Shown piece after piece: positions 2,730 to 55,331 of a stretch of 64,000 nucleotides of DNA; positions within the stretch are counted from its first letter, which is position 1, and every line of letters begins with the position of its first letter. The notes under the pieces were generated by a model. The model was not told where the DNA came from. It worked only from the letters and a program-made list of their open reading frames with translations, and ran no database searches. The DNA is from Candidatus Sulfomarinibacteraceae bacterium (lineage in GTDB: Bacteria > Acidobacteriota > Thermoanaerobaculia > Thermoanaerobaculales > Sulfomarinibacteraceae): positions 512,001 to 576,000 of the forward strand of contig CAWCLO010000001.1 in assembly GCA_963796455.1 (NCBI GenBank). Reading direction: 5' to 3'. Position numbers and translations under genes: made by a program.

Positions 2730-2765
2730 AGGCCTCCCGGTGGGTAGTATACCGGTGTTCCTTTC

Positions 2766-3005
2766 GATCCCGTTTCCGAAAAGGAGAAAGGGAGAAAGGG
2801 AGAAAGGGAGAAAGGGAGAACCCTACCGGATGCACCGTTCGTGATAAGGGCCGTGTCTCCCCTGCTCCCCTTCCCTGCTCCCCTGCTCCCCTGCTCCCCT
2901 GCTCCCCTGCTCCCCTGCTCCCCTGCTCCCCTGCTCCCCTGCTCCCCTGCTCCCCTGCTCCCCTGCTCCCCTGCTCCCCTGCTCCCCTGCTCCCCTGCTC
3001 CCCTG
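2766..3005. repeat. Compound STR element D copy 2: (GGGAGAAA)n ... TGATAAGG ... 16x CTCCCCTG
   Basis: 16 perfect CTCCCCTG units at 2878-3005; same order of parts as 100-267. Confidence 0.9.
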
Positions 3006-8864: not shown

Positions 8865-9140
8865 GAATCATTGCTGTCCAAAACAGATCGTCCTTTGAAT
8901 GCACCCACCTGACAACTCGAGACCTACGGATTGGCTTTTGGCCATATCCGGTTCCCGGTTCTCCCGTGTCCGCGTCCCCGTCCGAATCAAGCGGCAGCGA
9001 CAGCGTTCAGTGTTCAGCGGCAGTGAGCAGCGACAGGGAACAGCGGTCAGCGATCAGTACTCAGCGATCCGCGGTAACGGTCAGGAGTCCAGGCGGCGAA
9101 GCTACCACCTCCGGGTCGTTCAAAGGAACGGGTAGCCGCG
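8865..9140 (+). mobile_element. Element A copy 1 (left half only)
   Basis: GAATCATTGCTGTCCAAAAC terminus, CCCACCTGACA, CAGCG arm, CCACCTCCGGGTCGTTCA; homologous to the copies at 10296, 20020 and 49344. Confidence 0.75.
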
Positions 9141-9988: not shown

Positions 9989-10209
9989 GGGGTGCCTCCT
10001 GGTGTGTCGTTAGGATTTTGGCGTGGCCATCGTAGTGGAAAGGGCGAGAGGAGGAAAGGGAGATCGGCCGGATGCTCGATACTGGATGTTCGATACTGGA
10101 TCCCGAGCCCGAGCCCGTTGCCGCTACCGAAAGGGAGAAAGAGTGAGAGGGAGAGAAAGGGAGAACCATCCGGCAACCATTTCGTGCGCGTGCGAATGCC
10201 GCCTCCAGA

Positions 10210-10287
10210 TGTCATCCTGAGCGGAGCCCCACGTTGTCACGGCGCAGCCTGAAAGGCGAAGACGGAAGGGGCGGAGTCGAAGGATCT
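10210..10287. repeat. Palindromic repeat family B, half copy
   Basis: TGTCATCCTGAGC...GGAGTCGAAGGATCT, reverse complement of the ends of 42-85. Confidence 0.7.
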
Positions 10288-10295
10288 ATGAGGTG

Positions 10296-10832
10296 GAACC
10301 ACTGCTGTCCAAAACTGCTCGTCAATTGAAGTTGCCCACCTGACACCACGAGGTTGACCGGTTGGTTTTTGGCATTTCCGGTTCGTGGTTGCTCCGGGGT
10401 CCGAGTCCGCGTCCAAATTACAGCGGCAGCGACAGTGTGCAGTGGCAGCGACACCGACAGTGATCAGCGGCAGGGAACAGCGACAGAGGACAGCGTTCGG
10501 CGGCAGCGATCAGGAGTCCAGTCGGCGAAACGGCCACCTCCGGGTCTTTCAACAAAAGGAACAGCCGCTGTGGTGTCGGCGTCGCGCCTGCCCACCGTGC
10601 GGCCGAGACGGCCGCACCACCAAGGCCGGATCCCCGAGGAATTAGTGCTGTTCACTGTCCCGGCCGCTGATCGCTGACGCTGATGACTGAACACTGCCGC
10701 TGGCGACTGTTCGCTGTCGCTGCCCCGGCCGCTGATCGCTGACGCTGACTCCTGATAGCTGACGCTGTCTGCCGTTCCCCGTCGCTGTCCCTGCACGCTT
10801 ATCCGAAACTCAGTCTTGGACAAGAGTGATCG
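10296..10832 (+). mobile_element. Element A copy 2, complete gene-less MITE-like copy with a REP-like palindrome in the middle
   Basis: Termini GAACCACTGCTGTCCAAAAC / GTCTTGGACAAGAGTGATC; CAGCG left arm and CGCTG right arm; internal GTGCGGCCGAGACGGCCGCAC. Confidence 0.8.
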
Positions 10833-10852
10833 AACATTGAGTAACCGTGGGG

Positions 10853-10922
10853 ATCTCCCTTTCTCCCTTCTCCCCCCTTCTCCCTTTCTCCTCTGCCCTT
10901 CTGCTCATCTGCTCCTCTGCTT
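10853..10922. repeat. (TCTCCCTT)n + (CTCTGCTC)-like run, complementary to the GGGAGAAA run at ~10131-10166
   Basis: Read directly. Confidence 0.7.
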
Positions 10923-10958
10923 TTCGACCCGTCCGGGATCGGGTGGTAATCTCTGCTG

Positions 10959-20019: not shown

Positions 20020-20432
20020 GAGCCACTCTTGTCCGAGACAGGTTCTCGGCTACCGTTCAGGGACGGCGACAGCGATCAGCGTCAGAGACAGGGAACAGCG
20101 TTCAGTAGTCAGCGGCAGCGACCAGCGGCCGGGGCAGCTTCAGCTTCGGCGAACAAACGACCCGAAGGTGGCCACGCTGTCGCGGCACCTGATCGCTGTC
20201 CACTGATCGCTGTCCACTGACCGCTGTCCCTGATCGCTGTTCCTGATCACTGCCCCCTGTCGCTGTTCGCTGTTGCCTGTCGCTGCCGCTGCAAATCGGG
20301 CACGGACGCGGACGCGGACACGGGCACGGGCACGGGCCACCGCGAACTGGATATGCCAAAAACCAACCCGTAAACCACGTATTGTCAGATGGGCAACTCC
20401 ACATGACGATCTGTTTTGGACAACAGTGGTTC
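20020..20432 (-). mobile_element. Element A copy 3, complete gene-less copy
   Basis: Termini GAGCCACTCTTGTCCGAGAC / GTTTTGGACAACAGTGGTTC; CAGCG and CGCTG arms; AACGACCCGAAGGTGGCC remnant. Confidence 0.8.
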
Positions 20433-20801
20433 GGAGTGAGGATTGCTCGCCGAGAGCGATAGCGACTGCGACGGCCAATCTGCGTTTATCTGCGTGATCT
20501 GCGTTTTCTCCAGCCGGTCCGTTTTCCGGAGATGTGGCGGTATCTCAACGGTTATTGAAACAGGGTCTCATCATCAGAACCGTTTGTATTGCAGGTATTT
20601 GACGCGGTTGCTGTGTTATGCTCGCGATCGCCATTTGACGTTTGGTCAGAACAGTTCGTCTCGTCACCGATCCGGGGAAGGGGGAACGGCGTTGCGAGGG
20701 ATTTCAGTAGCTACAGACGGCACATTTGCCTGTATTGCTGGTGAACCACCATCCCCCCGGATGACCCCCCAAAAAACCCCGTACATCAACCGCGTTACTA
20801 T

Positions 20802-48827: not shown

Positions 48828-49285
48828 CCGGATCAAGGCGCCACCCTAGCCCGTCCTCGAAGACGACCGAAGACTTCGGCCGAAGGCTCGCTCCCGATTT
48901 GTCGGCGGGCGATGTGGTTCTGCTGGAAGGAGATCTGGCCGCCGGGAAGACGGTGTTTGTCCGCGGGATCGTCGCCGGTCTCGGAGGCGACCCGGAATTC
49001 GTGTCGTCTCCGACCTTTGTATTGCTGCAGACCTACGACTGTGACGTCCGCGGGATCGTCCGTTTCCACCACGTCGATCTCTACCGCCTCGCGGATCGTC
49101 TCGCGGACCTGCGAGAGATAGGCATCGAAGACGTGCTCTCAGACCCCCTTGCCGTGGTCGCGGTCGAATGGCCGAAAGACACTCTCGCGACCTGGTTAGC
49201 GGCCGATTCGCGGGTCTGGCGGGTTTCGATATCCACGCAAGACGACGAATCCCGTTTGATCGAGATCATTTCACCCGGCGACTGA
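48824..49285 (+). CDS. tsaE: tRNA t6A biosynthesis ATPase TsaE
   Basis: GDLAAGKT, VSSPTF, HVDLYRL, VEW; GTG overlaps nnr stop. Confidence 0.92.
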   Translation: MTGSRRHPSPSSKTTEDFGRRLAPDLSAGDVVLLEGDLAAGKTVFVRGIVAGLGGDPEFVSSPTFVLLQTYDCDVRGIVRFHHVDLYRLADRLADLREIGIEDVLSDPLAVVAVEWPKDTLATWLAADSRVWRVSISTQDDESRLIEIISPGD

Positions 49286-49343
49286 AACCGAAATCTGTTT
49301 CGACGGAAAGATGCCCGGGTAGCTCCCTGCATCTTGCGTCTCC

Positions 49344-50128
49344 AGTGACCAGCGCCAGCGACAGGGAACAGCGGTCAGCGATCAACGGCCGGGGCAGCGA
49401 CTGCAATCACATCTTCGGGTTCAACAGCCGCCAGGTCATCGCACGAACCTGATCGAAGGCGTTCATCCCGTCACGGGCGGCTGTCGCCCTGATCGCCCCG
49501 GCGTGCACGAGGAGCTTCAAGTGGCTGTCGACTTCTTTGGCCGATGCGTAGGCGATTCTCCAGTGATTCGATCGGTCTCTTCCGAACCGGCCGTGCCCTT
49601 CTGCCAGGTTCGCAGGGACTGAACTTGCCGAACGGATTACCTGATCGGCTATGGACTTCAGCGGCGATGGAACCCTCATTACAAGCTTGATCGCGATTCC
49701 TGCTGCTTCGAGGGCTTTCGAGTGGGCGACGAGGTTGGTGTTCGTGGCGGCTGAGGACATGGTCACCTCCGGGTCGTTCATGCCCATTCCCACAAGCCGG
49801 TGTGGTGGCCGATGTCAAGGATGCCCTGCACCCTGCCTGTCCTCGACATCGGCCGCCCACCGGCTACCCCTTCTTTTGAACGACCCGGAGGCGGCCACAT
49901 CGTCGCCTGTACTCCTGATCGCTGCCGCAGTCCTCTGTCGCTGTTCCCTGACGCTGTTGCCTGTCGCTGACGCTGGACACTGACGCTGGACACTGCCGCT
50001 GCCGCTGCATTTCGGCCACAGACGCGGACACGGGCACGGGCAACCGCGAACCGAATATTCTAAAAACCAACCCGTAAAGCACGTATTGTCAGGTGGGTAA
50101 CTTCACGACAATCTGTTTTGGACAACAG
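49344..50128 (-). mobile_element. Element A copy 4, gene-bearing copy (four-helix-bundle cargo)
   Basis: Same terminus (GTTTTGGACAACAG) and internal motifs as copies 1-3; CAGCG arm at 49344-49400 and CGCTG arm at 49910-50010 enclose the ORF. Confidence 0.78.
49407..49760 (-). CDS. Four helix bundle protein (23S rRNA IVP / TIGR02436-like, Avd-like fold)
   Basis: DQVIRSASSVPANLAEGHGR...HWRIAYASAKEV signature; GGAGGTGACC SD directly before ATG 49760. Confidence 0.88.
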   Translation of the reverse strand: MSSAATNTNLVAHSKALEAAGIAIKLVMRVPSPLKSIADQVIRSASSVPANLAEGHGRFGRDRSNHWRIAYASAKEVDSHLKLLVHAGAIRATAARDGMNAFDQVRAMTWRLLNPKM

Positions 50129-50151
50129 ATATCCTGCATCCTGGATCCTGC

Positions 50152-50892
50152 CTACCCCGCCATGACTCCGCCATCCACCGGAATCACCGTGCCCGTCATC
50201 CACGACGAGTTGCTCGACAGCAGGAAACTGATCATCAATGCCACATCTGACGGCCGGCCGACCCGGCCCATCGGGTGGAACGCACTCATCTCGGCAACCT
50301 GCTCCGGGGTCATGCCGCGCCCCGCGTGAATGGGGGTGTCGATCACCGCCGGCATCACCGCATTGACCCGGATCTCGGGCGCCCATTCGAGGGCCAGGGA
50401 ACGGGTCAGCTGGTTGAGTGCGGCCTTCGAGGCGTTGTAGGCGGCCATCCCGGGTATCGCCTTTTCGGCAAGGGTCGAGGACACATTGACCACCGCCGGT
50501 GAAGAGCCCTTTCCGAGGAGGCCTGCAAGCTCACGACAAAGCAGGAAGGGGCCTCGAACATTGATAGCAAAGGTCTCGTCCCAGAGTTCGTCGGTGCTCT
50601 CCAGGAGGGAGGCCATTGGGGCGACGCCGGCGTTGTTGACCAGACCATCAACTGCTCCCCAATGGGACCCGGCCTTTTCGGCGACCGCACGAACGGCCCC
50701 TGCATCCGACACATCGCACGACCATCCGACCGCCTTTTCGCCAAGTTCGGCAACGGCGGTCTGCAGGGATTCTGCCCTTCGACCGAGGAGTGCAACCTCG
50801 GCCCCCTCCGAAACCAGAATTCTCGCCGTTTCCAGGCCGATCCCGGATCCGCCACCCGAAATAACGATCCGTTTGTCGCGTAGTCCAAACAT
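50152..50892 (-). CDS. SDR family oxidoreductase
   Basis: SGGGSGIG, NNAG, YNASK, VDGG. Confidence 0.92.
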   Translation of the reverse strand: MFGLRDKRIVISGGGSGIGLETARILVSEGAEVALLGRRAESLQTAVAELGEKAVGWSCDVSDAGAVRAVAEKAGSHWGAVDGLVNNAGVAPMASLLESTDELWDETFAINVRGPFLLCRELAGLLGKGSSPAVVNVSSTLAEKAIPGMAAYNASKAALNQLTRSLALEWAPEIRVNAVMPAVIDTPIHAGRGMTPEQVAEMSAFHPMGRVGRPSDVALMISFLLSSNSSWMTGTVIPVDGGVMAG

Positions 50893-53252: not shown

Positions 53253-53273
53253 GTTTCGAGTTCCGGCCACTCA

Positions 53274-53564
53274 CATCTCACAACCGCAGATCACGCAGAT
53301 GGACGCAGATTGTCGGCCCGTCAATTGAATAGCATCGGTGTATCCGAAACCGCATTCTTGCTTGGAAGGGGTTGAAAACGCAAAGACGCAAAGACGCAAA
53401 GACGACGCTAATTTTTGAGTTCGGTTCGATCGAAATGTCTGCGTTCTGCGCGTCTTCGCAGTTCCAAAACCGACAATTCTCGTTCGAGAATCGATCGGCG
53501 CTCCGTCGTTCAGGGCCCGGTTCCGCTAATCTGCGGCCATCTGCGTGATCTGCGGTTTCTCCGT
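53274..53564 (+). mobile_element. Element C copy 1 (MITE-like, CGCAGAT termini, nested CGCAAAGA repeats)
   Basis: AACCGCAGATCACGCAGAT ... ATCTGCGTGATCTGCGGTT; collinear with the reverse complement of 54962-55232. Confidence 0.8.
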
Positions 53565-53737
53565 TTCGTATACCCCGGGCAGTCTGCCGACAAGGTCACA
53601 GGCTTCAGGAAACAGGTCTGAGGCCTCGAGCCCGTGAGAGACGGGTACAAGCCCCAGGTCCCAAGCGCCAAGCCTTTCCCGCTTGAGAGGGGCTCCAGGC
53701 TCGGCTATCCTTACGGTCGACAAACAACGGAGGACAC

Positions 53738-54940: not shown

Positions 54941-54961
54941 CCTGCCTGCAGGTTGCACGAC

Positions 54962-55232
54962 ACGGGGAAACCGCAGATCACGCAGATGACCGCAGATACC
55001 GGAACCGTAGCTTGAACGAAGGACCGGAGATCGACTCTCAAACGGTCATTGTCGATGTGGAACCGCGAAGACGCGAAGTCCGCAACGATTTCTTACAAAC
55101 CGGAATCGAAAAACTTTGCGTCTTTGCGTTTTCAACCCCTGCAAGCAAGAAGGCGGTTTCCGATTCACCGATACCGTTCAATTGACGGCCCGACAATCTG
55201 CGCCCATCTGCGTTATCTGCAGTTGTGAGATG
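54962..55232 (-). mobile_element. Element C copy 2, inverted relative to copy 1
   Basis: Reverse complement aligns over its full length with 53274-53564. Confidence 0.8.
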
Positions 55233-55331
55233 CGGGCGGGCGGTTCGCCGTCAAGCCTGGACTCCGACCATCCAGGCCTCCCCGACGTAGATTTCGTTGC
55301 GATCCCGTAAGCAGTCGGATACGCTCGATTG

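Follow-up and report, generated by a model that had tools for sequence, protein, structure and literature searches.

A four-helix-bundle gene between tsaE and an SDR gene

Structures of the S23p/IVP four-helix-bundle family have been solved, though no function is known for it, and the patchy occurrence of rRNA intervening sequences (IVS) has long been ascribed to mobility without a mechanism (PMC4990558). A gene of this family lies in the source genome between two host genes, tsaE and an SDR oxidoreductase gene, and is surrounded by repeat arms, which raises the question of what kind of element carries it and what keeps it intact. We find that the feature is very probably a transposase-less copy of an IS4-ended element, likely moved in trans, whose cargo is an older cassette made of arms, a hairpin blocking the ribosome site and the four-helix-bundle gene. 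Coordinates are positions in the window, the whole 64-kb stretch of DNA that was analysed; G000 is the source genome, other G numbers are the compared genomes and L numbers are loci. The locus is composed as follows:

48851..49285, + strand: tsaE, left host gene (TIGR00150 match)
49326..49339, no strand: two heptamer units in the orientation of the array at 50131, judged from the sequence to be the likely left remnant of the target array
49343..49406, - strand: 3' low-complexity arm, inverted relative to the 5' arm; truncated and without the 3' terminal repeat in this copy
49407..49760, - strand: four-helix-bundle gene, 117 aa (TIGR02436 / PF05635; S23p/IVP family, Avd-like fold)
49758..49898, - strand: ~140-nt hairpin, better conserved than any other non-coding part; the Shine-Dalgarno sequence is base-paired in its outer stem
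49899..50010, - strand: 5' low-complexity arm of degenerate CAG-containing units (approximate boundaries)
50011..50114, - strand: unique ~100-nt leader of the IS4-type shell and a short hexamer run, common to gene-less copies (approximate boundaries, by eye)
50115..50130, - strand: 16-bp terminal inverted repeat at the 5' end of the element; its motif is the right end of the autonomous IS4, with 3 mismatches to the family motif
50131..50152, no strand: target side, an AT-N5-AT-class 9-mer (50131-50139) within a short heptamer array, the usual target of the family
50152..50892, - strand: SDR oxidoreductase, right host gene, convergent with tsaE (ORF and profile search)

In profile searches the 117-aa ORF scored 56.3 bits against TIGR02436 (four helix bundle protein; curated cut-off 24) and 55 bits against PF05635 (cut-off 33.8), in agreement with the first-pass annotation, which had recognized a four-helix-bundle ORF at this place and had described complementary arms at ~49356 and ~49939 enclosing it. 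The two 18-mers at 49356 and 49939 are indeed complementary at 17 of 18 positions, and the RNA folding that it had proposed as a check gave, for the 861-nt region, a structure in which the arms enclose the ORF (z = -8.1 against 20 shuffles). The arms are nevertheless the inner low-complexity layer of a nested element and not its ends; the true outer end is the 16-bp terminal repeat at 50115-50130. The copy in the window ends at ~49343, having lost one terminal repeat and kept the other with 3 mismatches; it is therefore a damaged member of the family, and the evidence for a 9-bp target duplication rests on other copies, since this one has no second end. In the most invariant stem of the hairpin (49800-49860), two perfect -35-like TTGACA hexamers face each other in inverted orientation, an arrangement that persists even in the next family; no -10 matching these hexamers was seen by eye.

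The structure model used was built from a 62-sequence alignment (pLDDT 94.7), a single-sequence model (pLDDT 48) having been discarded, and consists of four helices. It matches Xcc0516 (2GSC) with a TM of 0.84-0.86, also BT_0352 (2RLD), and the DGR protein Avd (4DWL) with a TM of 0.80 and an rmsd of 1.5 at 7% sequence identity, as expected from the initial proposal of a fold common with Avd.

Copies in the genome and the orthologous locus

G000 (5.02 Mb, 90.5% complete) holds 70 PF05635 matches by profile search. BLASTN with the element detected 224 loci, of which 65 are full and 21 partial, while 138 lack all or nearly all of the gene; a profile census counted 229; derivatives included, element loci cover 1.75% of the genome. 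The full-length frame is present in 59 copies, with a median identity of 0.89 for DNA and 0.91 for protein, and elements with both ends are 303-895 bp long, with no transposase between the ends. By a crude calling of ORFs, 207 of the 224 loci lie between genes, with a mild excess in convergent gaps, which hold 23 of the 59 full copies while making up 465 of the 2057 gaps. In several copies (G000 C7:133818, C5:72652, C3:188235, C4:128515 and C1:390880) the middle part runs in the opposite orientation to the ends.

The terminal 250 bp of the element match the window at ~8872-9119, 10302-10546 and 20157-20426 with 73-75% identity (E 1e-31 to 1e-44), and none of these three loci carries the ORF:

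8869..9140, + strand: gene-less, 3'-truncated copy with terminal repeat, leader, arm and the first half of the hairpin
10300..10828, + strand: gene-less copy with both terminal repeats, of the commonest shared-junction subfamily; its flanks differ and another repeat lies at its left end
20024..20428, - strand: gene-less copy with both terminal repeats and a 7/9 target duplication

The repeat that abuts the left end of the copy at 10300 is a different palindromic one (10206-10292), and related repeats are found inside other copies. The first-pass annotation had reported three gene-less matches of the terminus in the window and had read them as empty derivatives of a full element, both of which are borne out, the latter genome-wide by 65 full copies and ~160 partial or gene-less ones. 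It had also called for a comparison of orthologous tsaE-SDR loci, and this found the element missing from all 18 readable congener gaps: the SDR gene is kept adjacent in 19 of 20 congener tsaE loci, one gap being unsequenced, and the gaps measure 90-483 bp as opposed to ~870 bp in G000. Most of them carry short facing heptamer arrays (by eye). Given that these relatives are distant (SDR dS 1.25-1.58, 13 genomes), the empty gaps show absence of the element and not an exact empty allele.

Ends, target duplication and target choice

The anatomy of the element was drawn from alignments of the 59 G000 copies and of 30 of the 52 G006 matches. From the outside in, the nested order is heptamer array, 16-bp terminal repeat, ~100-nt leader, low-complexity arm, ~140-nt hairpin and ORF, followed by the inverted arm, the terminal repeat and the heptamer array. 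Both ends are kept in 72 of 229 G000 loci (non-redundant). In a permutation test, which counted most elements twice (the non-redundant count being 72 copies), matching between flanks exceeded that of shuffled pairings at a 9-bp offset and at no other, and did so by far; a first reading by eye, a 2-bp (AT) or 7-bp duplication, was rejected because this test favours 9 bp. Among the 72 two-ended copies, 9-bp duplications are exact in 17 (1.8 expected) and have at most one mismatch in 33 (6.2 expected), while 39 have at least two mismatches between flanks. In G006 an exact 9-bp duplication was present in 14 of 30 fetched copies (de-duplicated), some of them at non-array targets.

Most targets are of the form AT-N5-AT within intergenic heptamer arrays, and arrays of at least three units adjoin an element in 40 of 60 cases; some targets are non-repetitive, and array periodicity cannot therefore mimic a duplication there. 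Because of its terminal repeats, its 9-bp duplication and its ends common with an autonomous IS4, the footprint is of the DDE transposon type, and the mobility of the element looks like DNA transposition and not an RNA process.

An autonomous IS4 partner

The autonomous IS4, L105, was found in congener G017 by scanning transposase loci for the end motif of the element. It is a 1411-bp IS encoding a transposase with DUF4372 and DDE_Tnp_1 (251 bits against NF033592, cut-off 115) and the Y-2-R-3-E-6-K motif; its right end equals the 5' end of the element over 17 bases and its other end agrees at 14 of 16. L105 itself has no target duplication. The same ends surround an IS4 gene with a frameshift in L136, a locus of another family whose 9-bp duplication is exact, and L133 is a 279-bp MITE with an exact duplication. 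The CA-ends, size and 8-10-bp duplication fit subgroup IS4Sa in Table 1 of PMC2266710, an assignment made by these features.

The L105-type transposase was not found in G000 (tblastn; 90.5% complete) or in G006, and was found in 1 of 25 genus genomes (incomplete assemblies). The element, having no transposase of its own, was likely moved by one made elsewhere and supplied in trans.

Other candidate partners were rejected: IS1182 gave no match above cut-off in 5 genomes, an IS5/IS1182-like gene of G000 (L100) and the HUH/Y1 genes are without the ends of the element, and IS1380 of G004 and G006 is a one-sided partial look-alike only. Six Y1_Tnp (HUH/RAYT-type) matches occur in G000, for instance L031-L035 on C4, C8 and C1, where those ends are likewise missing. 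Autonomous ISL3 and IS4 elements (L220, L221 and L223 in G022, G008 and G017, and L105 in G017) sit within heptamer arrays, which marks these arrays as general IS landing sites in the genus.

The gene is not needed for transposition

Gene-less or broken copies with both ends have duplications with at most one mismatch in 22 of 47 cases; as gene-less derivatives have duplications of their own, the ORF is dispensable for transposition. About half of these two-ended copies have one replacement junction in common (by eye), and at least nine copies begin at codon 57. All 20 shells fetched from five congeners (G008, G012, G020, G021 and G024), a small part of those counted there, are without the gene and measure 246-388 bp; they lie in the same target class, 10 of the 20 with exact duplications, and carry as cargo other palindromic, putatively REP-like repeats. 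At least two other palindromic repeat families (L228-L235 and L239-L250) were seen in the IS4-type shell, with 72 end matches in G021.

The cassette in other shells and genomes

The same arms, hairpin and gene were found between different ends, and in a different heptamer array, in G005, G008, G014, G017 and G020. Of 78 loci examined, 16 had both of these ends, and they show an 8-bp duplication (6 exact versus 1.7 expected, p 0.0005); ends and target are those of an autonomous ISL3 in G017. Neither shell surrounds most copies of G004, nor any of the 24 fetched from G040, two genomes with 45 and 46 protein matches respectively; we call these copies bare cassettes.

In an ORF tree of 72 sampled sequences, G000 and G006 copies in the IS4 shell group together in a single clade (99/99) and bare copies lie nearest the midpoint root. 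G006 represents a young burst, with a median ORF identity of 0.983. The ORFs of G000 and G006 (dS 0.54, DNA identity 0.84) are closer to each other than the SDR and nnr genes of the same genomes (dS 1.25, 67-69%), a comparison with two host genes that suggests horizontal transfer of the cassette between them. At L070, L075, L086-L090 and others in G006, and at L204 in G005, the interior of the hairpin is replaced by a different, longer sequence and the outer stem pairing with the Shine-Dalgarno sequence is kept.

Selection on the gene and decay of the ends

Among G000 copies dN/dS is 0.16 (400 of 1711 pairs). The 65 full copies contain 2 ORFs with stops, 4 with frameshifts and 1 without a start; with neutral decay at 0.03-0.07 per site, 47-73% of ORFs would be expected to remain free of stops. 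A mixture model puts the difference between the two halves of a duplication at 0.133 per site (interval 0.076-0.194), equivalent to ~0.066 for each copy since it inserted, and the element ends are 0.06-0.07 away from consensus, the hairpin 0.032. Distance to the nearest copy is 0.015 at 0-fold sites versus 0.084 at 4-fold sites. These sequence comparisons indicate purifying selection on the gene alongside decay of the ends and duplications. When only full copies are used, the insertion clock is very loose (left-right difference 0.002-0.253); array slippage could inflate it, and heavily decayed copies drop from the full class.

In the young copies of G006, 21 of 32 private changes are synonymous (p = 2e-4 against 0.33), counted in 27 of 30 copies after dropping two old ones and one shifted at the start; private changes in G000 are near neutral (pN/pS 0.62, neutral expectation 0.75-0.98). 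The decay of linkage within 30-60 nt (perm p = 0.001) agrees with gene conversion over short tracts; since a low dN/dS cannot arise from conversion by itself, the protein must be under some selection, acting either in place or on the donor copies. Two further signals were dropped, namely a synonymous excess among shared alleles as a sign of selection on internal branches, since recurrent mutation among 59 copies yields the same pattern, and the overlap of G006 private alleles with older copies, which is common by chance.

The hairpin, the arms and a possible role of RNA

Compensatory changes occur in 23 of 39 hairpin pairs (36 sequences from 9 genomes), the hairpin pairs the Shine-Dalgarno region in 57 of 59 copies, and in each of the 59 copies with an intact frame at least 20 predicted pairs close the arms around the ORF; folding of the arms around the ORF, as claimed at the outset for this locus, is thus predicted throughout. 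The stems hold 6 G-U as against 9 A-C pairs, and in only 13 of 59 copies does folding favour the sense strand, so nothing points to one RNA strand; a DNA-level palindrome explains the hairpin as well as an RNA structure does. A search of Rfam returned three weak microRNA-type matches only, far below gathering scores.

The incomplete assemblies of G000 (90.5% complete) and G004, both among the richest genomes, gave no PF00078 (RT) match; RTs above cut-off are present in G006, G008 and G014 (type uncharacterised), and G040 has one sub-threshold match. DGR-like adenine mutagenesis, suspected from variable codons, was rejected since A is not the most variable base: the mean non-consensus fraction over the 59 ORFs is 0.078 for A, 0.083 for C, 0.071 for G and 0.031 for T. 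The first-pass annotation had presented the locus as a candidate new mobile/RNA system, mobilised in trans or through RNA. Movement in trans fits the ends common with an autonomous IS4, with a presumed supply; movement through RNA or an Avd-RT pair is not supported in view of the DDE footprint, the failure to find an RT in the 90.5%-complete G000 and the lack of adenine bias, and novelty does not extend to the outer mechanism, which is of a known kind.

Relation to known systems

MICs move in trans. The IS4 modules MIC231 and IS231-MIC231, and MITEs, as treated in PMC2266710, resemble the element in their IS4-type ends, a duplication of about one helix turn, the absence of a transposase and the extra DNA between the ends. 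In contrast, the ends of our element fit IS4Sa and not IS231, its cargo is a repeat-armed four-helix-bundle cassette with ~65 full copies, its insertion targets are heptamer arrays, and its cassette is also carried by an ISL3 shell. With ends common with an autonomous IS4, a duplication of 9 bp (about 8-13 bp in the class) and no internal transposase, the element works like an IS4-derived mobile cassette (MITE/MIC), its partner transposase not being found in the same assembly.

ORF-bearing 23S rRNA IVS with S23p (Coxiella, Leptospira; PMC4990558) have in common with the element the PF05635/TIGR02436 family, complementary ends around the ORF and a poorly accessible translation start. However, the element is intergenic, multicopy and outside rRNA, with transposon ends, duplications and low-complexity arms, and its ORF appears to be under purifying selection whereas that of Coxiella is described as decaying (PMC4990558); located between tsaE and the SDR gene, it is not an rRNA IVS. 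It is not a DGR either: the four-helix-bundle fold is that of Avd (4DWL; PMC10053308), as reported above, but no RT, no TR/VR and no adenine mutagenesis were seen.

Paired arrays of Geobacter metallireducens (PMC2700814) and of Xanthomonas/Nostoc (PMC4692102) are likewise made of 7-8-bp units in facing pairs between genes, and IS elements adjoin some of those in G. metallireducens (PMC2700814); here, in contrast, heptamer arrays are insertion targets for IS4 and ISL3 elements. No link of arrays to four-helix-bundle genes appears in the searched parts of PMC2700814 and PMC4692102, and a literature search, with most subscription journals outside its reach, yielded no description of four-helix-bundle genes in MITEs or between repeat arms.

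Transposition itself is therefore ordinary here; the cargo is unusual and its selective signal unexplained. An S23p/IVP-type gene is seen spreading, in dozens of copies in a genome, in two or more unrelated transposon shells and with dated insertion footprints, and the question it raises is what keeps a passenger dispensable for jumping intact at ~60 loci while the transposon ends rot. The intact passenger makes the function of the protein directly testable, and L105 supplies an autonomous partner transposase.

What spread the cassette and what keeps the gene

According to the IS4-ended reading, which we hold with good confidence, the cassette would have acquired its IS4 ends a single time, in the common ancestor of the G000 and G006 copies, and an IS4-type transposase not found in the G000 assembly would then have spread the element to >200 sites. 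The four-helix-bundle protein is not required in cis for the transposition step. After insertion the ends would have decayed, copies may have swapped short tracts by gene conversion, and selection would have kept the gene and the hairpin. The order of the shell-swap events is likewise one that we infer. A pure-passenger model falls short given the dN/dS of 0.16, 2 stops in 65 copies and the many bare copies of G004 and G040; our most likely guess is that the protein binds the repeats or the hairpin of its own cassette, favouring the persistence or copying of intact cassettes.

A rival compatible with this account of the outer shell, and differing from it on the role of the protein, treats the inner cassette as a selfish element by itself: acting in cis, the protein would copy the cassette, or repair it, between arms that already existed, and the IS shells would only amplify hitch-hiker cargo. 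We regard it as possible, though clearly the less probable. The abundance of bare cassettes, mostly without either shell, speaks for it, as do the four of four other PF05635 genes inspected in G000, each between its own inverted tandem arrays (by eye), and the three GxxExxY loci located below; so do the difference between 0-fold and 4-fold sites while ends and duplications decayed by ~0.06 per site, the synonymous excess of the G006 burst and the linkage decay over 30-60 nt. Nonetheless, the literature consulted describes no catalytic activity for the four-helix-bundle family, the private changes of G000 are near neutral, the interval of the full-copy insertion clock is very wide, bare copies have no defined footprint, and selection at the host level could also keep the gene. 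A broader version is a little more doubtful still: the hairpin and four-helix-bundle cassette would be an undescribed selfish element, copied or repaired in cis by an Avd-like pentamer without an RT or transposase of its own, boarding IS4 and ISL3 mini-transposons as amplifiers, and the 23S rRNA IVS and facing heptamer arrays of many bacteria would be its relics.

It is unlikely that the gene is useful to the host and passively amplified, with host selection keeping copies of, for example, a protein that binds intergenic repeat arrays or a locked hairpin that limits a harmful product. Purifying selection, the few stops and the Shine-Dalgarno-blocking stem kept in nearly all copies would agree with such a use, and the family is widespread (1144 representatives at E ≤ 0.001); but matches range from 0 to 52 among 24 congeners, with none in 4, selection on each of ~60 near-identical copies is hard to explain by dosage, and the S23p of Coxiella is reportedly not made unless an RBS is added (PMC4990558).

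Very unlikely, finally, is an IVS-like RNA element whose transcript arms RNase III would excise as in 23S rRNA IVS and whose RNA would be mobilised by an Avd-like protein together with an RT in trans: the S23p family of IVS (PMC4990558), the Avd fold, the arms around all 59 ORFs and the covarying hairpin are in its favour, but it is opposed by the DDE-type footprint, the missing PF00078 in G000 and G004, the base variability of A and C, the pairs and strand preference of the hairpin, the absence of bias for the host transcription sense (9 sense, 17 antisense), arms that are direct repeats in 15 of 16 G040 copies versus inverted in 59 of 59 G000 copies, and a host 23S rRNA gene (C10:140644-143654) that overlaps 0 of the 70 PF05635 matches.

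Other genes and arrays of similar layout

Three GxxExxY (TIGR04256) loci of G000 (C1:453966-454313, C1:750137-750487 and C1:748395-748741) each lie between the inverted parts of their own tandem array of 8-10-bp units (by eye). In the window, facing octamer arrays with purine-rich and pyrimidine-rich strands occur at 102-266, 2765-3005 and 10116-10927; they are of the kind flanking the four-helix-bundle gene at L001 and are probably empty relatives of another cassette family. Inverted 115-nt arms and 10-mer arrays at 53263-53570 and 54957-55243, with a further place at 20474-20511, bracket two small genes; the same 10-mer unit flanks the frameshifted GxxExxY gene at C1:748395-748741.
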